Of a stretch of DNA of 64,000 bases, positions 1,250 to 56,253 are shown piece after piece; position 1 is the stretch's first letter; each line of letters starts with the position of its first letter. This stretch comes from Escherichia coli. Lineage in GTDB: Bacteria > Pseudomonadota > Gammaproteobacteria > Enterobacterales > Enterobacteriaceae. The notes beneath the pieces are model-generated. The model made no database searches. It saw only the letters and a program-made list of their open reading frames with translations, and was not told the DNA's origin. The stretch lies in NCBI RefSeq assembly GCF_044647545.1, contig NZ_CP172818.1; one strand, written 5' to 3'. Made by a program: the position numbers and the translations under genes.

Positions 1250-1254
1250 CGAGT

Positions 1255-1291: not shown

Positions 1292-1312
1292 TAATTACAC
1301 AATGCAAGAGGG

Positions 1313-3294: not shown

Positions 3295-3300
3295 CTTTCT

Positions 3301-4470: not shown

Positions 4471-4661
4471 TTTTTAAAAAAATCCGACTTTAGTTACAAC
4501 ATACTAATTATTGATGTTCTATTGTGCTCCGGCACCGACGGCGCGGAAAAGCCTGCCAGAGGAGAAATCGCAACTGTTAATTTTTTATTTCCACGGGTAG
4601 AATGCTCGCCGTTTACCTGTTTCGCGCCACTTCCGGTGCCCATCATCAAGAAGGTCTGGTC

Positions 4662-5725: not shown

Positions 5726-5730
5726 CATAA

Positions 5731-5756
5731 AAAGCCACGGATATATCCGTGGCTTT
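5731..5756. terminator. Hairpin between convergent yciH and osmB
   Basis: Perfect inverted repeat AAAGCCACGG-ATATAT-CCGTGGCTTT flanked by A/T runs on both sides. Confidence 0.7.
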
Positions 5757-5850
5757 CGAATATTTTACTGTGTGTATTATTCAGTTATTTCGTACTGAAC
5801 AGAATCAAGCGTATTATAATTGCGAGTCGATAATCGACATTTATTTACGA

Positions 5851-6069
5851 TTATTTACCGACCTGGTGACCAATAACACCACCGATGGCTGCACCACCTA
5901 ATGTACCCAACGTACTGCCATCGGTCAGTACTGCACCGCCTAATGCACCTGCGCCCGCGCCAATTGCGGTGTTACGGTCTCGTTTAGACCAGTTAGAACA
6001 GGCACTCAGAGACATTGCCAGGGTAATTGCCAGAACAGCCGCGGTCATTTTTTTGCTCGTTACAAACAT
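5851..6069 (-). CDS. osmB: Osmotically inducible lipoprotein OsmB
   Basis: 72-aa ORF with lipoprotein signal peptide (LSAC lipobox) and a Gly-rich body. Confidence 0.95.
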   Translation of the reverse strand: MFVTSKKMTAAVLAITLAMSLSACSNWSKRDRNTAIGAGAGALGGAVLTDGSTLGTLGGAAIGGVIGHQVGK

Positions 6070-6289
6070 AATACTCTCTCCTGAATTTATGATTCACGGA
6101 AGTAAGCTCTCTATAACTATAATAGCTAAGAATAAGCCTGGTGAAATTATTCCGTGAAATCCGCTCGCGCGCAGGGTTATATCACGCAGGTGATAATGAC
6201 TTCCTGTTATATCGCTGATAATAATTTTATATCTTGAGAGTGTTAATAACAGGTAAATAGTCTTAATTATCAACCAGGAATCATCTTAG

Positions 6290-6322
6290 AGCGGATGATT
6301 TGCCAAACTGCAAATCATCCGT
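6290..6322 (-). terminator. Hairpin downstream of yciT
   Basis: Perfect 12-bp inverted repeat CGGATGATTTGC / GCAAATCATCCG with 6-nt loop, 16 nt beyond the yciT stop. Confidence 0.55.
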
Positions 6323-6337
6323 AGAGAAGGGAAATGG

Positions 6338-7087
6338 TTAAATGTCAACGACGTGAACGGTGAGTTTACTGTGCTCAAGATGCATCAGATCGCTGGCGCG
6401 TATTTTCGAATCGGTAATCACGCGATTGAATCGCTCAACGGGGCCGATGGAGTATGAATGTACAGCACCAAATTTCGAGCTGTCAGTCAGGACTATCGCC
6501 TCGCACTCTTTTTCCAGCACGGCATTGACCACATCGGTACGCATCATATCGCGACCGGTAAACCCAGTTTCAGGTTGCCAGCCATCAATACCAATAAATG
6601 CTTTGCTGAAATGCACCTGTTGGATGCACTGGCGTGTCAATGGACCAACCATACTTTCGCTTTTTTTCTGGTACACGCCACCGAGCAAAATAACTTCACA
6701 AGGCGCGTCTTTCAGCAAATGCGCGATGTAGCTGCTGACCGTGATGATCGTGACATTTTTCTTCTGCTCGCCCAGAGTCCGGGCGAGCAGGGCATTGCTG
6801 CTGCCATTTTCGATAAAGATGGTTTCGCCCGGTTGAACCAGTGACGCGGCAAACTCGGCGAGTTCACGCTTCAGCGTATAGTTGCTCATCATACGAGTTT
6901 CGACGTCATCACTATCAAGCGATACTGCAAAGCCATGTGCACGGCGGAGGTAACTCAGTTTTTCGAGGGTGTTGAGATCCTGGCGAATGGTAACTTCAGA
7001 AACTCCAGTGGCTTTTGCCAGATCGGTTACGCTAACCTGACCCTGGTCAATGACCATCTGTAGAATAGTTTGTTGTCGGGAATTCAT
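6338..7087 (-). CDS. yciT: DeoR-family transcriptional regulator YciT
   Basis: 249-aa ORF; N-terminal HTH ([21 protein letters not shown]) and DeoR C-terminal sugar-binding-like domain. Confidence 0.92.
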
Positions 7088-7176
7088 CGCTGTAATTCTT
7101 ATAACGTTATAATACTAAATAAAAAAATACTGACGCGCCGGGCATCCTCAAATAGGAAAACCTGAAGGCACGATTG

Positions 7177-7350
7177 TTAAATCTCCCACGGTGCCTTCGG
7201 GATGTCTGGCGTAGATTCAGCAACCTGGCGCAAGAGTTCTGCTTTAAGTATCTCGAGATTATGGACCGCAGAGTGGTAATCGCCTGCCACAAGGATATCT
7301 AACACAATATCAATACGTTCGGCAACGCGCTGGGCATCAAATTCAGACAT
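7177..7350 (-). CDS. yciZ: Small protein YciZ (UPF0509), function unknown
   Basis: ORF 7177..7392; internal Met start gives 57 aa [18 protein letters not shown]... Confidence 0.8.
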
Positions 7351-7496
7351 CAAGGACATCCTTATAGCAAAAGTGGAAAAGGAATAATGCAAAAATTGCC
7401 GCTAAAAGAGAAGTGTTTAACAGCAACGGCTAATTATCATCCAGTAATACGATATATAATGACGGAATATATCGCTAAGTATATATATTCATCTAC

Positions 7497-9482
7497 TTAT
7501 GCGCGCTTCAGATAGCGTTTATACCAGCGTTCGAAGGCGACGGCGGGCATCGGTTTGGCAAACAAAAATCCTTGCCGCTCATTGATCCCGTTCTTGGTTA
7601 AAAAAGCATCTTCCTTTTTACTCTCCACACCTTCAGCGATCACCTGAAGATTCAATGCCTGTGCCACAGCAACGATCGCCCGGACCAGTGACTGCGAGAC
7701 AGGCTGTTTGTGAATATCCCGAACAAAAACCTGGTCAAGTTTGATGGCATCGATCGGAAAGCGCGCCAGTTGCGAAAGTGAAGAGTAGCCGGTACCAAAA
7801 TCGTCCAGATGCACTTGCGCACCTAGTTGGCTAAATTGTTGAATAACAGACAGTGCAAGTTCATCATTCTCAATCAGGCAGCTCTCCGTCAGTTCAACAT
7901 CAATAGGGCAGTATTCAAAATTGAGTTCCTGGAGAACCTGTTTCAGGGCGGTGAAAATGGTTTGATCGGCGAGCTGACGTGCAGAAATGTTTACCGCCAC
8001 TCGCAGGTTAATACCTTTATCCCGCCACTTTGCCACCTGGCGTACGACATCGAGAATCACCCAACGGCCTAAAGGCACAATTAGCCCTGACTCTTCGGCG
8101 TAGGAAATGAAGTCCAACGGTGGAATCAACCCACGTTCAGGTGACTGCCAACGTACTAGTGCTTCCAGACTGCGCACTTCGCCACGCCAGGTGATTTTCG
8201 GTTGATAGTGAATAACCAACTGATCGTTTTCCAGTGCTTTACGCAAGTTGGTATCCAGCCAGAGATATTCAAATACCCGCTGATTCATTTCTGGAGTAAA
8301 AACGCAAAATTGTCCTCGTCCGCCTTCCTTCGCTGTGTACATTGCTGTGTCGGCGTGACGAATAATAGCCGCGCTGTCCGAACCATGTTCGGGAGAGAGT
8401 GAAATACCCACTGAACAGCTGGTATAAACTTCAATTAAACCAATGCGGAAGGGGAGTCGTAAGCGGGTCAAAATTCGTGATGCCATTGCTTCCAGCGCGC
8501 TTTGTGAGGTATTGGATGCCAGTACCAGAAACTCATCGCCACCTGGACGCGCCAACACCTGATCATGTTCGAGACAGCTTAAAATGGCCAATGACACGTC
8601 GCGTAATAACTGGTCACCAAATAAATGCCCATAGGCGTCGTTGACCTTTTTAAAATTATCCAAATCAAGATACACAACCCCAACTTTATTGTTATCTGCC
8701 TGATTAATAGCGTGATCGATTAACTCCTGCATTGCGTTACGATTCGGCAGTCCGGTGATACTGTCGGTATTTGCCAGAATACGCAGTCGCTCCTGAGCGC
8801 GGCGCTCTTCGGTAATGTCGGTGCCGGAACAGATTAAAAAAATCTCGTTCTTGCCACTGCCGCTGTGGACAAATTTATTGCGAAACAGAAACAGCCGCTG
8901 GCCTTTACGTGTTGGTATCCACAGTTCGACTTCATATGCATTGCCGCTTCGAAAAAATACACGGTTATTGCGCCTGGATGCCGCAGCTTCACGACGGCTC
9001 ATAAACAGTTTAAACACGCTTTGGCCAATGACGTCGTGTTCTTTCAACCCAGTGTAATCTTCACATAACCGATTGAAGCGTTGGATATTCCCCCGGCTGT
9101 CGAGAATCACTATTGCGGAATGTGCTTCAGAAACTACCTGCTCAGCAAAGGAAAGCCCGTGTGATAAATCACGAGCAACTGCCGGTGTGTCATGCCATGC
9201 AGACGCGTTGCCAGCCCATTCCCGTTTATTGATTTTTCGTCCTACCAGATGCACAGAAAGATCGCTTTCATCGACGGTCAGACTCATCATCAGGCTGGAG
9301 GTGATGACCGTCATTTCCCTGATGCGAGCAGCCTGTTCGGCAGATAACTGCAAAGTACGATCAGGTTCTGTGGTTTCGGTGGTAGAAAAGCGCAAAACAT
9401 CGCTGCTTTCCGTTAACCGCCAGTATGGATTGTGCGATCCGAGAAAGTTGTACAACGTTGTGGACTCCCTAACGGTTTTCAT
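7497..9482 (-). CDS. pdeR: c-di-GMP phosphodiesterase PdeR (YciR/Gmr), PAS-GGDEF-EAL
   Basis: 661-aa ORF with PAS region, GGDEF domain (RPGGDEF) and EAL domain (QPKI..., DDFGTGYSSL). Confidence 0.95.
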   Translation of the reverse strand: MKTVRESTTLYNFLGSHNPYWRLTESSDVLRFSTTETTEPDRTLQLSAEQAARIREMTVITSSLMMSLTVDESDLSVHLVGRKINKREWAGNASAWHDTPAVARDLSHGLSFAEQVVSEAHSAIVILDSRGNIQRFNRLCEDYTGLKEHDVIGQSVFKLFMSRREAAASRRNNRVFFRSGNAYEVELWIPTRKGQRLFLFRNKFVHSGSGKNEIFLICSGTDITEERRAQERLRILANTDSITGLPNRNAMQELIDHAINQADNNKVGVVYLDLDNFKKVNDAYGHLFGDQLLRDVSLAILSCLEHDQVLARPGGDEFLVLASNTSQSALEAMASRILTRLRLPFRIGLIEVYTSCSVGISLSPEHGSDSAAIIRHADTAMYTAKEGGRGQFCVFTPEMNQRVFEYLWLDTNLRKALENDQLVIHYQPKITWRGEVRSLEALVRWQSPERGLIPPLDFISYAEESGLIVPLGRWVILDVVRQVAKWRDKGINLRVAVNISARQLADQTIFTALKQVLQELNFEYCPIDVELTESCLIENDELALSVIQQFSQLGAQVHLDDFGTGYSSLSQLARFPIDAIKLDQVFVRDIHKQPVSQSLVRAIVAVAQALNLQVIAEGVESKKEDAFLTKNGINERQGFLFAKPMPAVAFERWYKRYLKRA

Positions 9483-9681
9483 GATGCATATCCTCCGGTT
9501 AACAGCGGAGTCCGCGGTTAAATAAAAGGAACAACATGACTTACATGAAATTAACGGCGGCTAAACGCATTGTTTTTTTTATATATTTATTTGTAATCCA
9601 GTTTTGGAAAAACGCCAGTTTTCAAACGAAAGTCAGTTAAAAAATCTGCCGGGATATGACGAAGGTGGAGCGGGGAAATAA

Positions 9682-9708
9682 ACGGCCCATTCATGAGGAA
9701 TGGGCCGT
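9682..9708 (-). terminator. Hairpin downstream of rnb
   Basis: Perfect 10-bp inverted repeat ACGGCCCATT / AATGGGCCGT with 7-nt loop, 10 nt after the rnb stop. Confidence 0.6.
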
Positions 9709-9717
9709 GAAAGGAGA

Positions 9718-11652
9718 TTACGCGACCGGGCGCGCAATAATGCTGCGGGTTTCCATGCGGACTTCGGCAATGGTGACGTCAATAACGTCAGTCACTTTGT
9801 AAGCCGTTTCACCTTTAATTTGTACAGTGCCGTTTTCCTGGCTGCAAACCAGTTCATCGCGCACAGCGTGTAAGAAAGGTGCCGGAATAAAGGCGATAGC
9901 GCCGTTATCAACCAAACGAACACGCATGCCGCCACGGCTGATATCGACAATTTCCGCCGCGAAACGGGTGTCGGTCCCGGCTTTGTCTTTCAGGAAGCGT
10001 GCGTATAACCAGTCGCCAACATCACGTTCTGCCATTCGGTTGAGACGGCGACGCTCGGCCATTTGGACAGTGATTTCATCCTGCGGACGCGTCGCAGTTT
10101 CGCCTTTGATAACCGCTTTCAGCAGACGGTGGTTGATCATGTCGCCATATTTACGGATCGGCGAAGTCCAGGTGGCGTATGCCTCCAGACCGAGGCCAAA
10201 GTGAGGACCGGGTTCAGTGCTAATTTCAGCAAATGACTGGAAGCGACGAATGCGGCTGTCGAGGAAACCAGTTGGTTGCGCATCCAGTTCACGACGCAGT
10301 TTGCAGAAACCGTCCAGCGTGAGCACTTCTTCGGCATCGACATGCAGACCGTGGGTTTTCAGCAACGCTGCCAGCGCGTCGGCATTCGCCGGATCAAAGC
10401 CCATATGCACGTTATAGATGCCAAAACCGAGCTTATCGCGCAGTACGCGGGCCGCACAAATGTTAGCGGCAATCATCGCTTCTTCGACGATACGGTTGGC
10501 AATGCGACGAGGCTCGGCGACGATATCCAGCACTTCACCTTTTTCACCGAGAATAAAGCGGTAATCCGGGCGATCTTTAAACACCAGTGCGTGGTTATGA
10601 CGCCACTCGCCGCGGCGTTGGCAAATTTGCGCTAGCAAACGGACTTGTTCGGCAATTGCTTCGCTTTCAGGCTGCCAGTCACCGGTATTTTCCAGCCAGT
10701 CAGAAACCTGGTCATACACCAGCTTCGCTTTGGATTCGATGGTGGCGGCAAAGAATTCGATATTATCTTCAATGGTGCCATCAGCGGAGAGCGTCATGCG
10801 GCATGCCAGTACCGGGCGGACTTCATTGGCGCGCAGTGAGCAGAGATCGTCAGAAAGCTCGCGAGGCAGCATAGGGATGTTGAAGCCAGGCAGATAGTTG
10901 GTGAATGCGCGAATTTTCGCGGCTTTGTCCAGCTTGCTGCCTTCAGCAATCCACGCGGTTGGATCGGCAATCGCCACAATCAGCTGAAGTTTGTCATCCG
11001 GCAACGCCTTAGCGAAAAGGGCGTCATCCATATCTTCTGTGCTGGCACTGTCGATGGTGACAAAATCCAGCGCAGTCAGATCTTCACGAACCAGACCTTC
11101 ATCGAGCATTTCGGTAGCGACGCCGTCTGGTGCTTCTTTTTCCAGATTATGGCGCGCAAGGGTAACCCACCACGGTACAAAGTGATCGTCACCAAAAGTG
11201 ATGTATTGTGTCAGTTCAGCATAGAAAGAACGATCGCCTTTCAGCGGATGACGGCGCATTTCGGCAACCGCCCAGTCGCCTTCTTTAAACTCGTGGTTCA
11301 GGCCACGGGCTGCGCGGCAAGGAATGGCGTCTTTTAAGAGTGGATGATCAGGAACGATGGCCAGACGGTCATTTTTGCCCTGAACTTTACCCACGAAACG
11401 AGTCAGGAACGGTTCAACCAGTTCTTCTGGCTCTGCGGATTCACGTTCTTTTTCACTGTGGATCACCGCGATAATTCGGTCGCCATGCATGACTTTTTTC
11501 ATCTGCGGCGGCGGAATGAAATAACTTTTTTGCGCGTCGACTTCCAGGAAGCCAAAGCCTTTTTCTGTGGCTTTTACCACCCCTTCAGCGCGTGGCGTCT
11601 GGGAATGCAGTTGCTGTTTAAGCTGCGCTAGCAGCGGGTTGTCCTGAAACAT
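9718..11652 (-). CDS. rnb: Exoribonuclease II (RNase II)
   Basis: 644-aa [18 protein letters not shown]...; cold-shock, RNB and S1 domains. Confidence 0.96.
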
Positions 11653-11719
11653 AATTGTCTATTTTGGTGGCCATTAGAGCGGCTGACAGTTTTACGCGAA
11701 TCTGTCTGACGCGGCAAGG

Positions 11720-12835
11720 TTAATATGTCTCACCCAACGCGATTTTTAAGCGATTTATCCAGCCACACAGCCCGCTCCATACCAGCAGATTAATAATCTG
11801 CGTTGATGATTTTTCGTGTTCGAGTAATGGGCTGAACTGGGCGGCGCTAAAGCGATCGGGTGCTCGGGTCAGCCATTGTATCGCCTGAACGGTAGCGCGC
11901 TCAACAGAATGACGGTCAGCCCATTGGTTAATTTCATTTTCGCCCGCGCTGATTTTTTTATATTCATTTGATGAATCCATACAGGTGGCAAAACAAGCAG
12001 GACTGCCATTTATCCGCGCGCATAACAACGCCGCAAGCTGATTATCCGGCTGTGTATTGACCCGTGTGCTGTTTAGCAACTTTTCGAGAAGGGAAAGTGA
12101 AATAGGGTGGAGAGAGAGTGTTTCGGCCAGTTGGCAAAGTTCTGCAGTTGAACTTTTTGTGTGCTCTTCAGGGAGTTTTTCCACCTCATAGCTGCTTCGC
12201 CAGCGTATTGATTCATCAGCAAACAGTGACGCGTCGGCATAGTTTTGTATCTCCAGACCGGGTAACCAGCGTACCGGATGCCCGAGATAAGCCTGAAATG
12301 TCGCAATTGACCGCGCCTGAAAGCCAATAAAACCAATGATTTGGTTAATGATTACACAGTCCCAGGCAGTTAGGCCGACGTCATTCAGATGCTGGCGCGA
12401 TCGGTTGTCGATAATAGAAGGCGAGCTAGCCAGTTGGCGGGCATATTGCGTGATTTGTGCTAACCGATGATTACTTTCCCTGGAGGAATCAGGCCCGGGG
12501 AGCGGCGTAAGTCGCGCCGAATAGTAGTTACATAACCGTTGGACGCCGCAAACCTGAGCAACCGTCAGGGCCGTCGACAAGCGTTCATAAGCGGTGAAGG
12601 TCTGTGAACGGGTCACGGTAAGCTGGTCAGGGAACAACTCTACTGCAAGAACGCGCGCAGGGACCAGCCATGAAAGGAAGGGTGCCAGCGTTTCTTCATC
12701 AAGGATCACGTCGAGCAGAAAGGGATCGCTGACCTTTGCGGCTTCCGGGACCAGAGGTAGAACGTCATACTCCGCAGTACTGGATTGCGTTTCATGATAC
12801 CAGTGGCTTTTGCCGGTGATGTGGCGTTGTTCCAT
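11720..12835 (-). CDS. yciW: YciW, carboxymuconolactone-decarboxylase/peroxidase-like family protein, function unknown
   Basis: ORF 11720..12913; start placed at the internal ATG (MEQRHITGK...) preceded by AGGAG; the upstream Met at 12913 remains an alternative. Confidence 0.8.
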
Positions 12836-12978
12836 GGGCGCTCCTTGGTCGTAAAGGAAATCGTTATCCTGACGCAAGGCGGGAAGGGGAGAAAGACGGA
12901 TCGGCGATAACAAATATCAGAAAGGTATAACAGAGATAACGGGCGGCAGAACGCCGCCCATCTTTACCAACAGAACGA

Positions 12979-13767
12979 TTATTTCAGTTCGAGTTCGTTC
13001 ATTGCAGCGATGCTGAAACCGCCGTCAACGTGGACCACTTCACCGGAGATACCGGCAGAGAGATCGGAGCACAGGAATGCCGCGGAGTTACCCACATCTT
13101 CAATAGTAACGGTACGGCGAATCGGGGTAACGGCTTCGCAATGAGCCAGCATTTTGCGGAAGTCTTTGATACCGGAAGCCGCCAGAGTACGGATCGGACC
13201 CGCAGAGATGGCGTTAACACGCACACCTTCCGGACCCATCGCGTTCGCCATATAGCGCACGTTCGCTTCCAGAGACGCTTTTGCCAGACCCATAACGTTG
13301 TAGTTCGGGATAGCGCGCTCAGCGCCAAGGTAGGAAAGGGTCAGCAGGGCAGAACCCGGATTCAGCATGGAGCGGCAAGCTTTTGCCATTGCAACGAAGC
13401 TGTAGGAGCTGATGTCGTGGGCAATTTTGAAGCCTTCACGGGTAACGGCGTTAACATAGTCACCATCCAGCTGATCGCCAGGTGCAAAACCAATAGAGTG
13501 TACGAAACCATCAAATTTCGGCCAAACTTTCCCCAGTTCAGCGAACATGGTGTCGATGCTGGCATCTTCGGCAACATCGCACTGCAGAACGATGTCAGAA
13601 CCCAATTGAGCGGCAAATTCTTCTACGCGGCCTTTCAGTTTGTCGTTCTGGTAGGTGAATGCCAGTTCAGCTCCTTCGCGGTGCATCGCCTGAGCGATAC
13701 CGTAGGCGATGGACAGTTTGCTGGCAACACCGGTTACCAGAATGCGCTTACCGGAAAGAAAACCCAT
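12979..13767 (-). CDS. fabI: Enoyl-ACP reductase (NADH) FabI
   Basis: 262-aa [32 protein letters not shown]...; SDR fold. Confidence 0.97.
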
Positions 13768-13932
13768 AGCTTTAATCCTTATTGTTGATGCTTGTTGTGC
13801 CTGAAAATCAGGCGATTCGTCGTTTTAGTAAACAGTACGAACAGATAAACGGTTATTATAATCAACCTGGCTGTGGGTGGCTATAGTTGCCAGGTCCGAC
13901 CGGAGCAGGCTGCGGCAGGGGGGGCGCTTTTC

Positions 13933-13971
13933 CCCTCACCCTAACCCTCTCCCCAGAGGGGCGAGGGGACC
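13933..13971. repeat. GC-rich palindromic repeat, copy L (TCACCCTAACCCTCTCCCCAGAGGGGCGAGGGG)
   Basis: Internal hairpin CCCTCT-CCCC-AGAGGG nested in CCCCTC...GAGGGG; an inverted, diverged copy lies at 14121..14150. Confidence 0.7.
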
Positions 13972-14047
13972 GTATTGTGCAAATATTGTTACCCCAGCAA
14001 CAAACAGGCTCATACAGCCCCTAACCCTTTCATGGCGATGGCTGGGA

Positions 14048-14086
14048 CGGTTCAGACCTTGCCGAATATTCTCCAGCACCGTCTCC
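14048..14086 (-). repeat. Degenerate duplicate of the last ~13 codons of ycjD
   Basis: 35/39 identical to 14154..14192 (the ycjD 3' end); the last 23 nt are exact. Confidence 0.75.
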
Positions 14087-14120
14087 ATGTTTTCACCACA
14101 ACAGCTATTCGGCTCGGTCT

Positions 14121-14150
14121 GCCCCCTCGCTCTTTCAGGGAGAGGGTGAC
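14121..14150. repeat. GC-rich palindromic repeat, copy R (inverted relative to copy L), overlapping the ycjD stop codon
   Basis: Reverse complement GTCACCCTCTCCCTGAAAGAGCGAGGGGGC shares the TCACCCT..CTCCC..AGAG..GCGAGGGG pattern with copy L; encodes the terminal SPSP-stop of YcjD. Confidence 0.7.
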
Positions 14151-14488
14151 CGGCGGTTCAGTTCCTGCAGAATATTCTCCAGCACCGTCTCCTCATTACA
14201 ATCAATCTCGTTATTCCAGAAACGCAGCACGGTCCAGCCCTGCGACTCAAGCCAGCTAGTGCGCCTGGAATCATAGGCAACTGCTAAATCATGCTGCCCA
14301 CCATCCAGCTCAACGACTACACGCGCCGAGCAGCAAGCAAAATCGAGAATGTAGCTCCCCACTGGATGTTGACGGCGAAATTTGAAATCACTAAAACGTC
14401 GGCTGCGAAGATATCGCCAGAGCTTTCGTTCCTGCAAAGTGAGATTGCGTCTTAAATCACGCGCATTTGATTTAATTTTATCTATCAC
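14135..14488 (-). CDS. ycjD: DUF559 protein YcjD (restriction-endonuclease-like fold), function unknown
   Basis: 117-aa ORF MIDKIKSNARDLRRNLTLQERKLWRYLR... Confidence 0.9.
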   Translation of the reverse strand: MIDKIKSNARDLRRNLTLQERKLWRYLRSRRFSDFKFRRQHPVGSYILDFACCSARVVVELDGGQHDLAVAYDSRRTSWLESQGWTVLRFWNNEIDCNEETVLENILQELNRRSPSP

Positions 14489-14555
14489 CTCATTCTGACA
14501 AGATTTAATCTTTTGTCAGAATGAGGTGAATAATCTGGAAGGAGGATTCAGAAGA

Positions 14556-15362
14556 TTAACGGTCCTTACGCCACGCATCCGCCGTCAATGCCTCGCCAAA
14601 ATGACCGGCGATCAGCCGTTTGGTGAGTTCATGCAGCGGCGATGCCAGCACATCCGCGGTGCTGCCTCGCTCGACAACCTCGCCCTGATGCATCACCAGC
14701 ACCTGGTCGCTAATGTGCTTCATCATTCCGATATGCTGGGTAACATAAATATACGAAATGCCCTGTTTTTCCTGTAACTCCAGCATCAGGTTAATCAACT
14801 GCGAACGCATCGACATATCCAGTGAGGCGAGGGCTTCATCGGCAATAATGACTTTTGGGCGCAATATCAGCGCGCGCGCCAGACCCAGACGCTGTTTTTG
14901 CCCGGGTGCCAACATATGCGGATAGTAACTGACGTGATCCGGTAGCAGCCCAACCATACGCATCGTTTCAATAATCTGTTTGCGACGCTGTTCCGGTTCC
15001 AGATCGGTGTTCAGACGCAGTGGAAAATCCAGAATTTGCGAGATACGTTGACGGGGATTCAACGAGGTCGAAGGATCCTGAAAAATCATGCGAATACGCT
15101 GACTGCGGAAGGAATAATCGCCAAAATGCAGCGGATGATCGTCAATCAATAACTCGCCGCTGGTAGGTTCTATCATTCCCGCCAGCATTTTTGCCAGCGT
15201 GGATTTACCCGAACCATTCTCGCCAATAATCGCCAGTGTCTGGCCTTCACGTAGCGTAAAGCTCAAGGGTTTTACCGCTTCTACGGTCTGACGACGAAAC
15301 CAGCCGGTCCGGTAGCGGAACGTTTTACTTAAATTACGCACTTCAAGTAGCGTTTCGATCAT
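14556..15362 (-). CDS. sapF: ABC transporter ATP-binding protein SapF
   Basis: 268-aa ORF with Walker A GENGSGKST and ABC signature LAPGQKQR. Confidence 0.95.
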   Translation of the reverse strand: MIETLLEVRNLSKTFRYRTGWFRRQTVEAVKPLSFTLREGQTLAIIGENGSGKSTLAKMLAGMIEPTSGELLIDDHPLHFGDYSFRSQRIRMIFQDPSTSLNPRQRISQILDFPLRLNTDLEPEQRRKQIIETMRMVGLLPDHVSYYPHMLAPGQKQRLGLARALILRPKVIIADEALASLDMSMRSQLINLMLELQEKQGISYIYVTQHIGMMKHISDQVLVMHQGEVVERGSTADVLASPLHELTKRLIAGHFGEALTADAWRKDR

Positions 15363-25196: not shown

Positions 25197-25344
25197 TCTT
25201 TTTGTTCTGTAAGCCGGGTAAGCGCAATGCGCCCGGCAATCATAAAGAATGTCGCCAGAAATAAACGGGCATACGGCCCGGGGATCTCTGCGCCCTGACG
25301 TTCACAAACTGCATATATCTGATAGACGTGAAACAGGAGTCATA

Positions 25345-26832
25345 ATGAATTTTTATCATCTGGCTTACTGGCAGGATAAAGCGTTAAGTCTCGCCATTGA
25401 AACCCGCTTATTTATTAACGGTGAATATACTGCTGCGGAGGAAAATGAAACTTTTGAAACCGTTGATCCGGTCACCCAGGCACCGCTGGCGAAAATTGCC
25501 CGCGGCAAGAGCGTCGATATCGACCGTGCGGTGAGCGCAGCACGCGGCGTATTTGAACGCGGCGACTGGTCACTCTCTTCTCCGGCTAAACGTAAAGCGG
25601 TACTGAATAAACTCGCCGATTTAATGGAAGCCAACGCCGAAGAGCTGGCACTGCTGGAAACGCTCGACACCGGCAAACCGATTCGTCACAGCCTGCGTGA
25701 TGATATTCCCGGCGCGGCGCGCGCCATTCGCTGGTACGCCGAAGCGATCGACAAAGTGTATGGCGAAGTGGCGACCACCAGTAGCCATGAGCTGGCGATG
25801 ATCGTGCGTGAACCGGTCGGCGTGATTGCCGCCATCGTGCCGTGGAACTTCCCGCTGCTGCTGACTTGCTGGAAACTCGGCCCGGCGCTGGCGGCGGGAA
25901 ACAGCGTGATTCTAAAACCGTCTGAAAAATCACCGCTCAGTGCGATTCGTCTCGCGGGGCTGGCGAAAGAAGCGGGGCTGCCGGATGGTGTGTTGAACGT
26001 GGTGACGGGTTTTGGTCATGAAGCCGGGCAGGCGCTTTCGCGCCATAACGATATCGATGCCATTGCCTTTACTGGCTCAACCCGCACCGGGAAACAGCTG
26101 CTGAAGGACGCGGGCGACAGCAACATGAAACGCGTCTGGCTGGAGGCGGGCGGCAAAAGCGCCAACATCGTTTTCGCCGACTGCCCGAATTTGCAACAGG
26201 CGGCAAGCGCCACCGCCGCAGGCATTTTCTACAACCAGGGCCAGGTGTGCATCGCCGGAACGCGTTTGTTGCTGGAAGAGAGCATTGCCGATGAATTCTT
26301 AGCCCTGTTAAAACAGCAGGCGCAAAACTGGCAGCCGGGCCATCCACTTGATCCCGCAACCACCATGGGCACCTTAATCGACTGCGCCCACGCCGACTCG
26401 GTCCATAGCTTTATTCGGGAAGGCGAAAGCAAAGGGCAACTGCTGCTGGATGGCCGTAACGCCGAGCTGGCTGCCGCCATCGGCCCGACCATCTTTGTGG
26501 AGGTAGACCCGAATGCGTCCTTAAGCCGCGAAGAGATTTTCGGTCCGGTGCTGGTGGTCACGCGTTTCACATCAGAAGAACAGGCGCTACAGCTTGCCAA
26601 CGACAGCCAGTACGGACTTGGCGCGGCGGTATGGACGCGCGACCTCTCCCGCGCGCACCGCATGAGTCGCCGCCTGAAAGCCGGCTCCGTCTTCGTCAAT
26701 AACTACAACGACGGCGATATGACCGTGCCGTTTGGCGGCTATAAGCAGAGCGGCAACGGGCGCGACAAATCCCTGCATGCCCTTGAAAAATTCACCGAAC
26801 TGAAAACCATCTGGATAAGCCTGGAGGCCTGA
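25345..26832 (+). CDS. puuC: Gamma-glutamyl-gamma-aminobutyraldehyde dehydrogenase PuuC
   Basis: ORF 25249..26832; start at internal ATG after AGGAG (MNFYHLAYWQDK...); 495 aa; ALDH catalytic Cys in GQVCIAG. Confidence 0.95.
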   Translation: MNFYHLAYWQDKALSLAIETRLFINGEYTAAEENETFETVDPVTQAPLAKIARGKSVDIDRAVSAARGVFERGDWSLSSPAKRKAVLNKLADLMEANAEELALLETLDTGKPIRHSLRDDIPGAARAIRWYAEAIDKVYGEVATTSSHELAMIVREPVGVIAAIVPWNFPLLLTCWKLGPALAAGNSVILKPSEKSPLSAIRLAGLAKEAGLPDGVLNVVTGFGHEAGQALSRHNDIDAIAFTGSTRTGKQLLKDAGDSNMKRVWLEAGGKSANIVFADCPNLQQAASATAAGIFYNQGQVCIAGTRLLLEESIADEFLALLKQQAQNWQPGHPLDPATTMGTLIDCAHADSVHSFIREGESKGQLLLDGRNAELAAAIGPTIFVEVDPNASLSREEIFGPVLVVTRFTSEEQALQLANDSQYGLGAAVWTRDLSRAHRMSRRLKAGSVFVNNYNDGDMTVPFGGYKQSGNGRDKSLHALEKFTELKTIWISLEA

Positions 26833-26833
26833 A

Positions 26834-28114
26834 ATGACCGAACATACCAGCAGTTACTACGCCGCCAGTGCGAATAAATACGCGCCATTCGACACGCTGA
26901 ATGAGTCGATTTCCTGCGACGTTTGCGTGGTCGGTGGCGGCTATACCGGGCTTTCCTCCGCGCTGCATCTGGCGGAAGCGGGCTTTGATGTAGTGGTTCT
27001 CGAAGCCTCACGCATCGGCTTCGGCGCAAGCGGACGCAATGGCGGGCAGCTTGTGAACTCCTACAGCCGCGACATCGACGTGATCGAAAAAAGCTACGGC
27101 ATGGACACCGCCCGTATGCTCGGCAGCATGATGTTTGAAGGCGGAGAGATCATCCGCGAACGTATCAAACGTTATCAGATTGACTGCGACTACCGCCCCG
27201 GCGGCCTGTTTGTGGCGATGAATGATAAACAGCTCGCCACACTCGAAGAGCAGAAAGAGAACTGGGAACGCTACGGCAATAAACAGCTGGAGCTGCTGGA
27301 TGCCAACGCCATTCGCCGTGAAGTAGCCAGCGATCGCTACACTGGTGCGCTGCTGGATCACAGCGGTGGGCATATTCACCCGCTAAACCTCGCCATTGGT
27401 GAAGCCGATGCCATCCGCCTGAACGGAGGGCGCGTGTATGAGCTTTCCGCCGTGACGCAGATCCAGCACACCACGCCAGCCGTGGTGCGGACTGCCAATG
27501 GTCAGGTGACGGCGAAGTATGTGATTGTCGCCGGGAATGCGTATCTGGGCGATAAAGTAGAGCCGGAACTAGCGAAACGCAGCATGCCGTGCGGCACGCA
27601 GGTGATCACCACTGAACGGCTGTCGGAAGATTTAGCCCGTTCGCTGATTCCGAAAAACTACTGTGTGGAAGACTGTAACTATCTGCTTGATTACTACCGT
27701 CTTACCGCCGATAACCGCCTGCTGTACGGCGGCGGCGTGGTCTACGGCGCGCGCGACCCGGATGACGTTGAGCGCCTTGTGGTGCCGAAACTGCTGAAAA
27801 CCTTCCCGCAGCTGAAGGGCGTGAAAATTGATTACCGCTGGACGGGCAACTTCCTGCTGACCCTGTCACGCATGCCGCAGTTTGGTCGCCTCGATACCAA
27901 CATCTACTACATGCAGGGCTACAGCGGCCACGGCGTCACCTGTACCCATCTTGCCGGGCGTTTGATTGCTGAACTGCTGCGCGGTGACGCCGAACGCTTC
28001 GACGCCTTCGCCAATCTGCCGCATTACCCGTTCCCCGGCGGGCGCACGCTGCGCGTTCCGTTTACCGCGATGGGCGCGGCTTATTACAGCCTGCGCGATC
28101 GTCTGGGCGTTTAA
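26834..28114 (+). CDS. puuB: Gamma-glutamylputrescine oxidoreductase PuuB (FAD-dependent)
   Basis: 426-aa ORF with FAD-binding GGGYTG motif. Confidence 0.95.
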   Translation: MTEHTSSYYAASANKYAPFDTLNESISCDVCVVGGGYTGLSSALHLAEAGFDVVVLEASRIGFGASGRNGGQLVNSYSRDIDVIEKSYGMDTARMLGSMMFEGGEIIRERIKRYQIDCDYRPGGLFVAMNDKQLATLEEQKENWERYGNKQLELLDANAIRREVASDRYTGALLDHSGGHIHPLNLAIGEADAIRLNGGRVYELSAVTQIQHTTPAVVRTANGQVTAKYVIVAGNAYLGDKVEPELAKRSMPCGTQVITTERLSEDLARSLIPKNYCVEDCNYLLDYYRLTADNRLLYGGGVVYGARDPDDVERLVVPKLLKTFPQLKGVKIDYRWTGNFLLTLSRMPQFGRLDTNIYYMQGYSGHGVTCTHLAGRLIAELLRGDAERFDAFANLPHYPFPGGRTLRVPFTAMGAAYYSLRDRLGV

Positions 28115-34511: not shown

Positions 34512-35804
34512 ATGATTAAATCAAAAATCGTGCTGTTATCAGCACTGGTTTCCTGCGCCCTGATTTCAGGTTGTAAAGAAGAAAATAAAACGAATGTCTC
34601 CATTGAGTTTATGCATTCTTCGGTGGAACAGGAACGCCAGGCGGTAATTAGTCAGTTAATTGCGCGTTTTGAAAAAGAAAACCCGGGCATCACCGTTAAA
34701 CAAGTGCCCGTGGAAGAAGACGCCTATAACACCAAAGTCATTACCCTTTCACGTAGTGGTTCGCTGCCGGAAGTGATCGAAACCAGCCATGACTACGCCA
34801 AAGTTATGGACAAAGAGCAGCTTATCGATCGCCTGGCGGTTGCCACGGTCATCAGCAACGTCGGTGAAGGCGCGTTCTACGATGGCGTTCTGCGGATTGT
34901 GCGCACCGAAGATGGTAGCGCATGGACCGGTGTTCCTGTCAGCGCCTGGATTGGCGGCATCTGGTATCGCAAAGATGTGCTGGCAAAAGCCGGGCTGGAT
35001 GAGCCGAAAAACTGGCAACAGTTGCTGGATGTCGCACAGAAACTGAACGATCCGGCGAATAAAAAATACGGTATTGCACTGCCGACGGCAGAAAGCGTGC
35101 TGACGGAGCAATCTTTCTCCCAGTTTGCGTTATCCAATCAGGCTAACGTCTTTAACGCCGAAGGCAAAATCACCCTTGATACCCCAGAGATGATGCAGGC
35201 GCTGACCTATTACCGCGACCTTGCTGCCAACACCATGCCGGGTTCTAACGACATTATGGAAGTGAAAGACGCCTTTATGAACGGCACCGCGCCGATGGCG
35301 ATTTACTCCACCTATATCCTTCCGGCTGTGATTAAAGAAGGCGACCCGAAAAATGTCGGTTTCGTGGTGCCAACCGAGAAAAACTCGGCGGTCTACGGCA
35401 TGTTGACCTCGCTAACCATTACCGCCGGGCAAAAGAGCGAAGAGACGGAGGCGGCGGAAAAATTTGTCACCTTTATGGAGCAGGCGGACAACATTGCCGA
35501 CTGGGTGATGATGTCGCCAGGCGCGGCGCTGCCGGTGAACAAAGCGGTTGTGACGACTGCCACCTGGAAAGATAACGACGTGATTAAGGCGCTGGGAGAC
35601 TTGCCGAATCAGTTGATTAGCGAACTGCCAAATATTCAGGTCTTTGGCGCAGTAGGGGATAAAAACTTTACCCGCATGGGCGATGTGACGGGGTCTGGCG
35701 TGGTGAGTTCAATGGTGCATAACGTCACCGTGGGGAAAGCCGATCTCCCTGGCACGCTGCAAGCGAGCCAGAAAAAGCTGGATGAACTGATCGAACAGCA
35801 CTAA
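34512..35804 (+). CDS. ycjN: ABC transporter periplasmic sugar-binding protein YcjN
   Basis: 430-aa ORF with lipoprotein-type signal (LISGC). Confidence 0.92.
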   Translation: MIKSKIVLLSALVSCALISGCKEENKTNVSIEFMHSSVEQERQAVISQLIARFEKENPGITVKQVPVEEDAYNTKVITLSRSGSLPEVIETSHDYAKVMDKEQLIDRLAVATVISNVGEGAFYDGVLRIVRTEDGSAWTGVPVSAWIGGIWYRKDVLAKAGLDEPKNWQQLLDVAQKLNDPANKKYGIALPTAESVLTEQSFSQFALSNQANVFNAEGKITLDTPEMMQALTYYRDLAANTMPGSNDIMEVKDAFMNGTAPMAIYSTYILPAVIKEGDPKNVGFVVPTEKNSAVYGMLTSLTITAGQKSEETEAAEKFVTFMEQADNIADWVMMSPGAALPVNKAVVTTATWKDNDVIKALGDLPNQLISELPNIQVFGAVGDKNFTRMGDVTGSGVVSSMVHNVTVGKADLPGTLQASQKKLDELIEQH

Positions 35805-39433: not shown

Positions 39434-40489
39434 GTGAAAAGTGCAATGACAAGCTCTCCGCTGCGAGTCGCGATCATAGGCGCGGGCCAGGTGGCGGATA
39501 AAGTTCATGCTTCGTACTACTGCACCCGCAACGATCTGGAACTGGTGGCTGTCTGTGACAGCCGCCTTTCCCAGGCGCAGGCGCTGGCAGAAAAATACGG
39601 GAATGCATCCGTGTGGGACGATCCGCAGGCCATGCTGCTGGCGGTGAAACCTGATGTGGTTAGCGTCTGCTCACCTAACCGTTTTCATTACGAACATACC
39701 CTGATGGCGCTGGAAGCGGGCTGCCATGTGATGTGCGAAAAACCGCCCGCCATGACGCCAGAACAAGCGCGGGAAATGTGCGATACCGCGCGCAAACAGG
39801 GCAAGGTGCTGGCCTACGACTTTCACCATCGTTTTGCACTCGATACGCAACAGCTGCGTGAACAGGTGACCAACGGCGTTTTGGGAGAGATTTACGTTAC
39901 CACCGCCCGCGCCCTGCGTCGCTGCGGTGTTCCCGGCTGGGGTGTCTTTACTAATAAAGAATTGCAGGGCGGCGGGCCGCTTATTGACATCGGCATTCAT
40001 ATGCTGGATGCGGCGATGTATGTACTGGGCTTTCCGGCGGTGAAAAGCGTGACCGCGCATAGCTTTCAAAAGATCGGAACGCAAAAGAGCTGCGGTCAAT
40101 TTGGCGAGTGGGACCCGGCAACCTACAGCGTCGAAGATTCGCTGTTTGGCACCATTGAATTTCATAACGGCGGCATTCTGTGGCTTGAGACCTCATTTGC
40201 ACTCAACATCCGCGAACAGTCGATTATGAACGTCAGCTTTTGTGGTGATAAAGCCGGGGCGACGCTGTTTCCAGCACATATCTACACCGATAACAACGGT
40301 GAGTTAATGACGCTGATGCAACGGGAAATGGCAGACGACAACCGTCATCTGCGCAGTATGGAAGCCTTTATCAACCACGTACAAGGTAAGCCCGTGATGA
40401 TAGCCGACGCCGAGCAGGGGTACATCATCCAGCAACTGGTGGCGGCGTTGTATCAATCCGCAGAAACAGGAACGCGTGTGGAATTATGA
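39434..40489 (+). CDS. ycjS: Gfo/Idh/MocA-family NAD-dependent oxidoreductase YcjS
   Basis: 351-aa ORF, GTG start; N-terminal Rossmann VAIIGAGQVA. Confidence 0.92.
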   Translation: MKSAMTSSPLRVAIIGAGQVADKVHASYYCTRNDLELVAVCDSRLSQAQALAEKYGNASVWDDPQAMLLAVKPDVVSVCSPNRFHYEHTLMALEAGCHVMCEKPPAMTPEQAREMCDTARKQGKVLAYDFHHRFALDTQQLREQVTNGVLGEIYVTTARALRRCGVPGWGVFTNKELQGGGPLIDIGIHMLDAAMYVLGFPAVKSVTAHSFQKIGTQKSCGQFGEWDPATYSVEDSLFGTIEFHNGGILWLETSFALNIREQSIMNVSFCGDKAGATLFPAHIYTDNNGELMTLMQREMADDNRHLRSMEAFINHVQGKPVMIADAEQGYIIQQLVAALYQSAETGTRVEL

Positions 40490-42752
40490 CCAGGCCAGTA
40501 ACGTTAACGGAACCCCATTTCAGCCAGCATACCCTGAACAAGTATGCTTCGCTGATGGCGCAGGGGAACGGCTATCTTGGGCTTCGCGCCAGCCATGAAG
40601 AAGATTATACGCGCCAGACACGCGGTATGTATCTGGCGGGGCTTTATCATCGCGCGGGGAAAATGACATCAACGAACTGGTGAACCTGCCTGACGTCATA
40701 GGGATGGAGATTACCTTGAATGGTGAACTTTTTGCGCTATCCCGCGAAACGTGGCAGCGCGAGCTTGACTTCGCCAGTGGTGAATTACGTCGCAATGTCG
40801 TCTGGTCTTCAGCCAGCGGCGCACGTTATGCCATTGCCAGCCGTCGCTTTGTTTCGGCAGAACAACTGCCGCTGATGGCGCTGGAAATCAGCATTACGCC
40901 GCTGGACGCTGACGCGTCAGTGCTGATTTCAACAGGCATTGACGCCACGCAAACCAACCACGGACGACAACATCTCGACGAAACCCAGGTGCGGGTGTTT
41001 GGTCAGCATTTGATGCAGGGGATCTATACCACTCAGGATGGACGCAGTGATGTGGCCATCAGCTGTTGCTGCCAGGTGAGCGGTGACGTGCAGCAATGCT
41101 ATACCGCCAAAGAGCGCCGCTTGCTGCAACATACCAGTGCACAACTACCTGCGGGCAAAACGCTGACGCTGCAAAAACGGGTGTGGATCGACTGGCGGGA
41201 CGACAGACACGTCGCTTTAGACGAGTGGGGTAGTGCATCGCTTCGTCAGCTTGAAATGTGTGTACAGCAGAGTTACGACCAACTTCTTGCAGCATCCACA
41301 GAAAACTGGCGTCAATGGTGGCAGAAACGTCGTATCACGGTAAACGGTGGCGATGCGCACGATCAGCAAGCGTTAGATTATGCGCTTTATCACCTACGCA
41401 TCATGACGCCTGCTCACGACGAGCGCAGCAGTATTGCGGCAAAAGGTTTGACCGGGGAAGGCTACAAAGGCCACGTTTTCTGGGATACGGAAGTATTTTT
41501 ACTGCCGTTCCATCTGTTTAGCGAACCGACGATTGCCAGAAGTTTACTGCGTTATCGCTGGCACAACTTGCCAGGCGCGCAGGAGAAAGCGCGACGCAAC
41601 GGCTGGCAGGGCGCGCTATTTCCGTGGGAAAGCGCGCGCAGCGGCGAAGAAGAGACGCCGGAATTTGCCGCCATTAACATTCGCACCGGGCTGCGGCAAA
41701 AAGTGGCCTCGGCGCAGGCGGAACATCATCTGGTCGCCGATATCGCCTGGGCGGTTGTTCAATACTGGCAGACCACGGGGGATGAAAGTTTCATTGCTCA
41801 TGAAGGCATGGCGCTACTTCTGGAAACTGCAAAGTTCTGGATTAGCCGCACGGTGAGGGTTAACGACCGTCTGGAAATTCATGATGTTATTGGGCCAGAC
41901 GAATATACCGAACATGTCAATAATAACGCCTTCACCAGCTATATGGCGTATTACAACGTCCAGCAGGCGCTGAACATCGCTCGTCAATTTGGCTGTAGCG
42001 ACGATGCGTTTATCCATCGCGCCGAAATGTTCCTTAAAGAACTGCGGCTGCCAGAAATTCAGCCCGACCGCGTTTTGCCGCAGGATGATTCGTTTATGGC
42101 GAAACCAGCGATTAATCTGGCGAAATACAAAGCGGCGGCGGGGAAGCAAACCATTCTGCTGGATTATTCACGCGCAGAAGTGAACGAGATGCAGATCCTC
42201 AAACAAGCTGATGTGGTGATGCTCAATTACATGCTGCCGGAGCAGTACTCAGCGGCATCGTGTCTTGCCAATCTGCAATTTTATGAACCGCGCACCATTC
42301 ACGACTCTTCACTGAGTAAAGCGATCCACGGCATTGTTGCCGCACGCTGTGGCCTGTTGGCGCAAAGTTATCAGTTCTGGCGGGAGGGGACTGAAATCGA
42401 TCTTGGTGCTGATCCGCATAGCTGTGATGACGGTATCCACGCTGCCGCAACTGGCGCAATCTGGTTGGGGGCGATTCAGGGTTTTGCCGGGGCGAGCGTG
42501 CGCAACGGTGAATTACATCTCAATCCGGCGTTACCTGAGCAGTGGCAACAGTTGTCTTTCCCTCTGTTCTGGCAGGGCTGTGAATTACAGGTCACTCTTG
42601 ACGCGCAGCGCATTGCGATTCGGACTTCTGCGCCAGTTTCACTGCGTTTGAACGGTCAGCTTATTTCAGTCTCTGAAGAATCTGTTTTCTGTTTAGGGGA
42701 TTTTATTTTGCCCTTCAATGGGACCGCTACCACGCATCAGGAGGGTGAATGA
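40486..42752 (+). pseudogene. ycjT: GH65 glycoside phosphorylase YcjT (kojibiose phosphorylase), interrupted by a 1-nt frameshift near 40656..40663
   Basis: ORFs 40486..40683 (65 aa) and 40680..42752 (690 aa) are two halves of one gene in frames +1 and +3; one extra base in the GGGGAAAA run would give a continuous ~755-aa protein. Confidence 0.8.
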
Positions 42753-43408
42753 AACTGCAAGGGGTAATTTTCGATCTGGATGGAGTAATCACCGATACCG
42801 CACATCTGCATTTCCAGGCGTGGCAGCAGATTGCCGCTGAAATTGGCATCAGCATTGATGCGCAGTTTAACGAATTCCTAAAAGGGATCAGCCGCGATGA
42901 GTCCCTGCGGCGAATTCTGCAGCACGGGGGTAAAGAGGGCGATTTTAACCCACAGGAACGGGCGCAACTGGCGTATCGCAAAAATCTGCTTTACGTCCAC
43001 TCACTGCGCGAACTGACGGTTAATGCTGTGCTGCCTGGCATTCACAATTTGCTGGTAGAGCTCCGAGCACAGCAGATTCCGGTTGGGCTGGCTTCTGTCT
43101 CCCTGAATGCGCCGACGATTTTAGCAGCGCTGGAGCTGCGCGAGTTTTTCACCTTCTGCGCGGACGCTTCCCAACTCAAAAATTCGAAACCGGACCCGGA
43201 AATCTTTCTCGCCGCCTGTGCAGGGCTGGGCGTGCCGCCACAGGCATGTATCGGCATTGAAGATGCGCAGGCGGGCATTGAAGCCATTAACGCCAGCGGT
43301 ATGCGCTCGGTGGGGATCGGCGCGGGCTTAACCGGGGCGCAATTGCTGTTGCCCTCAACGGAATCTCTCACATGGTCGCGGTTATCGGCCTTCTGGCAAA
43401 ACGTATAG
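42749..43408 (+). CDS. ycjU: Beta-phosphoglucomutase YcjU (HAD superfamily)
   Basis: 219-aa ORF with HAD motif I ([10 protein letters not shown]). Confidence 0.95.
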
Positions 43409-45467: not shown

Positions 45468-45498
45468 TGCCGGATGCGGCGCGAGCGCTAAATCGGCA
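45468..45498. repeat. REP-like palindromic element between convergent ompG and ycjW
   Basis: TGCCGGATGCGGCGCGAGCGCTAAATCGGCA resembles the REP consensus. Confidence 0.45.
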
Positions 45499-53138: not shown

Positions 53139-53318
53139 GATCGTCTCTGGTTCAGGAAGTATTACAGGCAGTGTTGTGCAAATTTTGCGGATTATCAAAT
53201 CCTTTTCTTCAACGCTATGTTATCGATCTTTTCACTTTTTTGCCGGAAGTTGTTTGCATTTCTTTAAGGCGAAACAAATAATTACGCATCAATTTTAATG
53301 TCGGTTAGAGGGAAACTT

Positions 53319-56014: not shown

Positions 56015-56253
56015 TGTTTTATCAGGCTCCTCCAGATAATTGTCGTCATGCCGGAAACCCCTGGCGGGACTATTTTACCGCGACAATTCATTCAGATCAT
56101 CAATAGTCAGGGAAGGAAGTAGCAACTCTAACTAATCAATACGTTGATTGTAAATCCAGCTAAGAGGTGAGGTTTTCAGAGCAGACAACGGTGAAATGTC
56201 ATGGTATTGTTACGTTTAGGTAACAAGAAATTTGTCTGCACAAGGATTACATC

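Follow-up and report, generated by a model that had tools for sequence, protein, structure and literature searches.

A single-base frameshift in ycjT of an ST648-like Escherichia coli record is most likely an artefact of a reference-guided consensus

The window analysed here is a 64,000-nucleotide stretch of Escherichia coli DNA containing ycjT, the gene for the GH65 kojibiose phosphorylase, at 40486..42752 on the plus strand. The gene lies at its expected place in the ycjM-ompG operon, between ycjS and pgmB/ycjU, and the remainder of the operon was found to be intact, as a preliminary description of this DNA had claimed. The ycjT of the window measures 2,267 nt rather than 2,268, and its frame is broken at codon 60. 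The break lies in the run GGGGAAAA (40656..40663, plus strand), which consists of four G (40656..40659) and four A (40660..40663) and lacks one A relative to the GGGGAAAAA of related genomes. In place of an uninterrupted frame of about 755 codons, two open reading frames are present. The 5' fragment (40486..40683, plus strand; 65 aa) reads in frame +1 from the ATG at 40486 through 59 native residues, MTRPV...LYHRAGK, followed by the out-of-frame tail MTSTNW and a TGA at 40681..40683. The next frame, which reads ...GENDINELVNLPDV, runs on into a 690-aa ORF (40680..42752, plus strand), whose GTG start overlaps the TGA of the 65-aa ORF (GTGA) and whose product would be without the first 65 residues of the N-terminal domain. 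No Shine-Dalgarno sequence was found upstream of the GTG at 40680.

Addition of one A gives back a YcjT of 755 aa, as had been proposed, and an intact CDS of this length is what the relatives carry (WP_022645632.1). The restored protein contains the Pfam domains Glyco_hydro_65N (PF03636, residues 8-237), 65m (PF03632, residues 298-660, E = 1.9e-144) and 65C (PF03633, residues 672-728), and matches the solved kojibiose phosphorylase 3WIQ with E = 1.6e-110. The K-12 protein (b1316) has the same length and the same three GH65 domains, and is encoded at the same locus of the ycjMNOPQRSTUV-ompG operon, between ycjS and ycjU/pgmB. Unlike the K-12 gene, the ycjT of the window is interrupted as written, and it is the phylogroup F allele, with 90-95% DNA identity to the allele of most E. 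coli. The same operon in K-12 carries a one-base homopolymer frameshift (G5 versus G6) in ycjV/ymjB (b1318/b4524), a different gene from that affected in the window; the K-12 ycjV pseudogene is a well-established real lesion. According to the literature, kojibiose phosphorolysis has been demonstrated for K-12 YcjT only (Mukherjee, Narindoshvili and Raushel 2018, PMC5953851, cited in PMC6599011 and PMC11543891).

Comparison with related genomes confirmed that ycjT is split by a single-base frameshift, A5 having become A4. More than 200 near-identical ST648 / phylogroup F genomes have GGGGAAAAA and encode an intact 755-aa GH65 protein. Against the closest relatives (FDAARGOS_497, strain ST648 and WP4-S18-ESBL-09), the missing A is the sole difference in 2,401 bases, the site reading GGGGAAAAAT in the relatives and GGGGAAAAT in the window. 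A 101-nt query across the site had no exact match among 5,426 complete E. coli genomes, and the extra base is present in all 30 listed of the 207 best matches. A 25-kb comparison agreed with this query in showing the deletion to be private. The F-type allele occurs in 213 complete genomes, being uninterrupted in 212 and having a different 8-nt form in one; the form of the window occurs in none. The 690-aa product and a private YcjV variant (WP_400165231.1) were found on the source contig only, and no sister assembly was found. The exact 65-aa product was found on nine other contigs, none of ST648 background, with G4A4 at the DNA level in some and G3A5 in others. Several of these contigs are noisy, and Logan contigs of one background show G5A3, G4A4 and G3A5. 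These nine contigs neither confirm nor refute the allele of the window.

Is the ycjT deletion an isolated event in this record? Alignment of the window with NZ_AP022098.1 over 63.3 kb (all but 13891..14556) revealed one substitution and six small deletion events, all six derived relative to ST648, IAI39 and MG1655. Given one SNP and natural indel:SNP ratios between 0.1 and 0.5, six or more indel events have a Poisson probability of 1e-9 to 1e-5. Five of the six events are intergenic, in the non-coding 8% of the region (P = 1.7e-5 if random), and ycjT is the sole broken gene of the window, in line with the preliminary description. The remaining 238 homopolymers of at least 5 nt are correct: every one of the 59 with a length of 6-8 nt, and 179 of the 180 with a length of 5 nt. 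Such a distribution is at odds with random read error.

Four of the non-coding deletions are private to the record and coincide with the only four structural junctions between F-type genomes and MG1655 in the region, each of which is affected. At 25240..25242, a C has been lost where a 123-bp segment found only in MG1655 has its edge; at 25241 the sequence of the window is that of MG1655 after a clean deletion, the C of all F-type genomes being absent. At 45493..45495, a REP element bordering a 78-bp MG1655-only segment lacks a C. At 53230..53233, GTA is replaced by T at the edge of the 2.4-kb MG1655-only ycjY-pgrR segment, and at 56126..56129, ATTAG is replaced by T exactly at the insertion site of IS5F in MG1655. 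These scars lie 0-8 nt from a junction or within the junction repeat, whereas positions no more than 5 nt away from any breakpoint amount to only 0.4%. Only two of 5,345 genomes were found to share a scar at that IS5F site, the RefSeq records BS-01 and HS-01 (about 4.5 Mb each), which also have new protein accessions numerically close to that of the private YcjV of the window, WP_400165231.1. Mutator, DinB-type and quasi-palindrome mutagenesis were considered as sources of the small deletions and rejected, because the deletions follow K-12 breakpoints rather than sequence motifs.

A fifth structural difference is settled in favour of MG1655: a segment of K-12 type containing ycjD was observed at 13891..14556, in place of the 7.9-kb TetR/RND/OMF/MFS efflux island of F-type genomes, an island found in IAI39 and in all ST648 relatives. 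This 666-bp segment is 99.85% identical to MG1655 and 92.5% identical to strain 042, whereas its flanks are 98.5-99% identical to MG1655, the switch occurring exactly at the island edges. The segment is reference carry-over and belongs to the artefact pattern. Natural homologous recombination was rejected as the origin of the swap, because the flanks remain 100% ST648-type right up to the segment edges. Together, the scars and the base-exact ycjD swap are the pattern of a consensus guided by an MG1655-like reference, not of a de novo assembly.

The broken run in ycjT is itself strongly discordant with MG1655, which reads GGGAAAAGG at the site corresponding to 40656..40663; the K-12 template and the real strain differ there by four substitutions in 10 nt. 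Among 606 homopolymer runs of at least 4 nt, only three have at least three differences from MG1655 within the run and 1 nt on either side, and the A5 of ycjT, with three, is one of them. Outside these three most discordant runs, none of the other 603 is altered. As a counterpoint to an artefact, about 1,380 substitutions and 12 true small indels relative to MG1655 were rendered correctly, as were the two other equally discordant runs. Given such accuracy elsewhere, a false deletion in the coding A5 would be an unusual failure.

The best explanation, to which we assign a probability of about 0.85, is that the ycjT break is a consensus artefact and is not present in the organism. The record would derive from reads of an ST648-like (phylogroup F) E. 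coli, with a K-12 MG1655-like sequence serving as the template for their consensus. A procedure of this kind would call substitutions and small indels well, and would be expected to fail in three situations: large structural differences would leave small scars, sample DNA absent from the template would leave the template sequence in place, and dense clusters of differences beside homopolymers would be miscalled. The known artefacts of reference-guided "pseudo-genomes" are of these kinds, namely retained template at sample insertions, edge scars and miscalls beside homopolymers, and the window shows all three. In ycjT, the template would have GCGGGAAAAGGTGAAATC where the true F-type allele has GCGGGGAAAAATGACATC; one of two adjacent G-to-A replacements would have come out as a deletion, which yields GGGGAAAA and what looks like a frameshift at codon 60. 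The deletion, its privacy, the coincidence of scars and breakpoints, the template carry-over and the discordance of the A run with the template are shown by the comparisons; the procedure we infer from the pattern of the sequence, and an intact 755-aa YcjT in the real strain is therefore to be expected with the same reservation.

The preliminary description had offered a real inactivating mutation, a slippage-prone site or a homopolymer sequencing error as the cause, and these readings fare differently. A recent genuine loss of function, in which replication slippage removed one A from A5 and YcjT is truncated after its 59 native residues, possibly with a restart at GTG 40680 yielding a protein that misses part of the GH65 N-terminal domain, is a possible but minority reading, and we consider it unlikely. 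It would leave a strain without kojibiose phosphorylase and with possible polarity on ycjU, ycjV and ompG. Short homopolymers are the usual place for real -1 events, and the remaining ycjT is 100% identical to intact alleles, as a fresh event predicts. The operon also decays in some strains, as seen in the K-12 ycjV pseudogene and in the 441 of 5,426 complete E. coli genomes with no ycjT match, and selection on it may be weak, since K-12 fails to grow with kojibiose as its only carbon source and YcjW represses the operon (PMC6599011). An independent lineage is moreover frameshifted at the same run. In FDAARGOS_1267 (NZ_CP069522.1, locus I6J97_RS12270), the run is GGGGGAAA and ycjT is marked "frameshifted" by PGAP; as in the window, the F-type allele is split into a 65-aa N-terminal product and a 690-aa ORF. 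This allele differs from that of the window in having GGGGGAAA instead of GGGGAAAA and in a background of about 97% identity, and it recurs on clean contigs of about 124 kb from 10 independent sequencing runs (Logan samples), so that it looks real, whereas the allele of the window is found in one record only. ycjT can therefore be lost through a break at this position. Real -1 events in both the window strain and the FDAARGOS_1267 lineage would make the G4A5 run of F-type ycjT a recurrent target, and would suggest that extraintestinal E. coli lineages lose kojibiose phosphorylase repeatedly, possibly as an adaptation; we regard this as improbable. The idea of a slippage-prone site is unsupported, the 9-nt run being kept in 212 of the 213 complete genomes with the F-type allele. 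Contingency homopolymer loci have a long tract, usually of at least 7 nt, whose length varies between close relatives; the tracts here are G4 and A5, and one of the 213 genomes has a different 8-nt form, which is not the profile of a phase-variable locus. Against a real mutation in the window stand its presence in just one record, with more than 200 near-identical genomes lacking it, the five other demonstrable reconstruction errors in that record, all linked to the K-12 template, and the chance (P about 0.005) of landing on one of the three most MG1655-discordant runs. With one private SNP in 63 kb, moreover, well under 0.1 real private coding indels would be expected.

An error as such is favoured by the evidence, but a plain homopolymer read error in a de novo assembly of long reads (nanopore or PacBio), independent of any reference, is very improbable. 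Such an error would agree with all six small differences being deletions and with the change of the 9-nt run to 8 nt in noisy public assemblies, as illustrated by GCA_052952975.1 (22 deleted and 12 inserted bases and 29 gap openings in 12 kb) and by the varied rendering of the run in Logan contigs sharing a background. It conflicts with the correct rendering of the other homopolymers, above all those of 6-8 nt, and with the position of the other deletions outside homopolymers and on K-12/F breakpoints; nor would a de novo assembly put the K-12 ycjD in the place of the RND island with edges exact to the base. Production of full-length YcjT by programmed -1 ribosomal frameshifting, or by transcriptional slippage, at GGGGAAAA is scarcely credible. 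Shifting by -1 on G GGG AAA would bring translation back into frame with perfect re-pairing of the P-site tRNA-Gly, and the 97 nt downstream fold somewhat better than shuffles, with a predicted MFE of -29.2 kcal/mol (z = -2.6); all intact alleles have this downstream sequence too. The zero frame of the ORF at 40486..40683 (codons GCG GGG AAA ATG) contains no X XXY YYZ heptamer, the A-site Lys tRNA would need to re-pair on GAA, no Shine-Dalgarno-like stimulator is found upstream, and a run of only four A is much too short for slippage of RNA polymerase. Recoding is effectively refuted by lack of conservation, none of the 5,426 complete genomes sharing the split allele and 212 of 213 being uninterrupted with the same downstream sequence.

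Overall, the ycjT frameshift is most likely not a real feature of the strain. Even if fresh and real, a frameshift in this repressed and dispensable sugar operon would create no more than an ordinary pseudogene, of little biological weight. The main weight of the finding lies in data quality, as the record seems to be a K-12-templated consensus presented as an ST648-like genome. In such a record, and possibly in its siblings BS-01 and HS-01, accessory DNA such as a multidrug RND efflux island would be under-represented, and the record would further contain spurious junction indels and one or more spurious pseudogenes. Statistics of gene content, resistance genes or pseudogenes drawn from such records would be biased.

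In the window, ycjT, the gene for the GH65 enzyme kojibiose phosphorylase, is split into two open reading frames. The ATG at 40486 starts a 65-codon frame (MTRPV...LYHRAGK, then MTSTNW) that ends at the TGA at 40681..40683, so that translation as written gives 59 native and 6 aberrant residues. The neighbouring frame reads ...GENDINELVNLPDV and runs on into a 690-codon ORF (40680..42752). The earliest possible start of this ORF is the GTG at 40680, which shares bases with the stop as GTGA; no Shine-Dalgarno was found upstream of it, and restart there would give a protein without part of the N-terminal beta-sandwich domain. The window carries a homopolymer pair here, G4 (40656..40659) followed by A4 (40660..40663). 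This anatomy had been given in a preliminary description and was found to be exact on re-reading. Of 5,426 complete E. coli genomes, 4,985 matched the 2.4 kb around the break, the best being those of ST648 / phylogroup F strains (FDAARGOS_497, strain ST648, WP4-S18-ESBL-09 and ECONIH1 among them); in each of these best matches the matched span was one base longer than the query. Base-by-base alignment over 2,401 bases showed a sole difference, GGGGAAAAAT in the relatives versus GGGGAAAAT in the window, which bears out the single-base frameshift first proposed. The predicted restored length of about 755 aa also agrees with the relatives, in which ycjT is annotated as intact (755 aa, WP_022645632.1) and is flanked by ycjS and pgmB (ycjU) in the ycjM...ompG cluster. 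Restored YcjT has the N-terminal (8-237), catalytic (298-660) and C-terminal (672-728) GH65 domains and matches the solved kojibiose phosphorylase 3WIQ (E = 1.6e-110).

The split allele was not seen elsewhere in this background. A 101-nt query spanning the site did not match any of the 5,426 complete genomes exactly, and the extra base was present in all 30 hits listed of the 207 best. When the other two possible 8-nt forms of the run were queried in complete genomes, GGGAAAAA was found in none and GGGGGAAA in exactly one, FDAARGOS_1267, whose ycjT (NZ_CP069522.1, 5858-8124 of the sequence compared) is labelled by PGAP as a frameshifted pseudogene. The GGGGGAAA allele is also present on clean contigs of ~124 kb from 10 sequencing runs (e.g., Logan SRR28330396), and it looks like a genuine pseudogene; it affects the same run as in the window, but in another lineage and with other DNA. 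The 690-aa product and the YcjV variant WP_400165231.1 are confined to one NCBI contig of 4,499,902 bp, presumably the source. The exact 65-aa product is present on nine other public contigs, none of ST648 background, and their DNA has the run either as G4A4 or as G3A5. Contigs with the FDAARGOS_1267 background give three renderings of the run, plus other homopolymer deletions, and one of the nine, contig JBQMUR010000010.1 (GCA_052952975.1), is a very noisy assembly with 29 gap openings within 12 kb (22 bases deleted, 12 inserted). None of these contigs is a reliable guide to the window's allele. Compared with ST648 genomes, contig JBQMUR010000010.1 also shows 23 substitutions in these 12 kb, and nearly all of its ycj operon genes are split, marking it as very error-rich.

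The window was aligned as a whole to its nearest complete genome, NZ_AP022098.1. No differences were found over 1-13890, and 14557-64000 showed one substitution and six small events, all of them deletions in the window. These include one A at 40660 in ycjT and the intergenic changes CC to C at 25241, CC to C at 45494, GTA to T at 53231-53232 and ATTAG to T at 56127-56128. Compared with ST648, IAI39 and (where an alignment is possible) MG1655, every deletion is the derived state, and none was found in common with close relatives. The only private substitution in 63 kb, at 44487 (A versus G in ST648, IAI39 and MG1655), gives YcjV E356K, the variant WP_400165231.1. Natural divergence was rejected as the source of the indels: at indel:SNP ratios of 0.1 to 0.5, six of them against one SNP have a Poisson P of 1e-9 to 1e-5. 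Random read error was also rejected: non-coding DNA, 8% of the region, holds five of the six events (P = 1.7e-5), and the other 238 homopolymer runs of at least 5 nt, including all 59 of 6-8 nt, are correct.

Phylogroup F / ST648-like (F-type) sequence and MG1655 differ in this region by just four internal structural junctions: a 123-bp MG1655-only segment between puuR and puuC, a 78-bp MG1655-only REP segment between ompG and ycjW, a 2.4-kb MG1655-only ycjY-pgrR segment between mpaA and mppA, and an IS5F copy between ynaI and ynaJ. The window's private non-coding deletions, four in number and 1-4 nt long, coincide exactly with these junctions; at 25241 the window reads as MG1655 cleanly deleted (GGCAATC joined to ATAAAG), without the C present in every F-type genome. 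A fifth structural difference runs in the opposite direction: the sapF-fabI interval, which in all ST648 relatives and IAI39 holds a 7.9-kb island (TetR regulator, RND pump, outer-membrane factor and MFS transporter), is occupied at 13891-14556 by 666 bp with ycjD. This segment differs at one base from MG1655 and from many phylogroup A strains and is only 92.5% identical to strain 042; its flanks match MG1655 at 98.5-99% and are 100% ST648-type up to the segment edges, and the switch falls exactly at the island edges. No complete genome combines K-12-type ycjD with ST648-type flanks. Natural homologous recombination was rejected, as it should bring donor-type SNPs into the flanks, which are not expected from a graph or template switch.

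The simplest account is that reads of an ST648-like strain were made into a consensus on an MG1655-like template. Substitutions and small indels would then be well called (~1,380 substitutions and 12 indels are correct), template-only segments would be cut out with imprecise edges, and DNA present only in the sample would be lost. At the ycjT site, MG1655 has GCGGGAAAAGGTGAAATC and the F-type allele GCGGGGAAAAATGACATC, with four substitutions in ten bases, among them an adjacent GG-to-AA change affecting both homopolymer lengths, and the window equals the F-type sequence minus one of the two replacement bases. Among the 606 homopolymer runs of at least 4 nt in the alignable region, only three, including the shortened A5, have at least three differences to MG1655 within the run ±1 nt, and none of the other 603 is altered. 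Because the allele is private, the record holds five other template-linked errors and the site is extremely discordant with the template, the broken ycjT is considered to be an artefact of consensus or assembly, with a probability of about 0.85, the template-guided form being strongly preferred over a plain long-read homopolymer error. The procedure itself is deduced from the sequence pattern, not from reads or a method record.

A fresh loss-of-function mutation is unlikely by comparison. It gains from the frameshift of FDAARGOS_1267, which, like the known decay of the ycj operon (ycjV is a pseudogene in K-12), counts against an artefact, as does the correct calling of two equally discordant runs by the same procedure. 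Against it stand the private allele and the place of the site among the three most discordant runs, since real slippage should not favour such a run (about 0.5% by chance) and a template consensus should. Recoding to yield YcjT from the split gene is highly improbable: an in-frame slippery heptamer is absent, the split state is not conserved, and the downstream fold is just modestly better than that of shuffled sequence and common to all intact alleles.

YcjW represses the ycjMNOPQRSTUV-ompG operon and has a second binding site between ycjT and ycjU, and kojibiose as sole carbon source does not support growth of K-12 (PMC6599011, PMC11543891). K-12 ycjV/ymjB (MG1655, 25822-26903 of the sequence compared) is a pseudogene owing to a G5 versus G6 homopolymer difference; ycjV is intact (360 aa) in the window and F-type relatives. 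The phylogroup F ycjT allele (window 40400-42800) is 90-95% identical to that of 4,462 of the 4,985 genomes, with flanks at ~98%; this far greater divergence suggests an old imported or divergent operon allele.

BS-01 (NZ_CP172816.1) and HS-01 (NZ_CP172817.1), which come from a study of broilers and humans in Indonesia and are listed in RefSeq as "complete genomes" of ~4.5 Mb, have new protein accessions numerically near the window's private YcjV, and among 5,345 genomes only these two carry a small scar at the window's IS5F site. In both, ATTAG is missing where IS5F is inserted in MG1655 (about 34960-34970 in BS-01); in BS-01, moreover, puuD and pgrR are "internal stop" pseudogenes, and several proteins have new accession numbers. 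Both records may have come from the same template-guided procedure. The evidence points to the source record, and perhaps the two siblings, being K-12-templated pseudo-assemblies that omit accessory DNA. Overall, the ycjT break is no new kind of biological feature: as an artefact it would be a data-quality flag, and if real it would be a recent pseudogene of an ordinary kind, in an operon that is repressed and dispensable.
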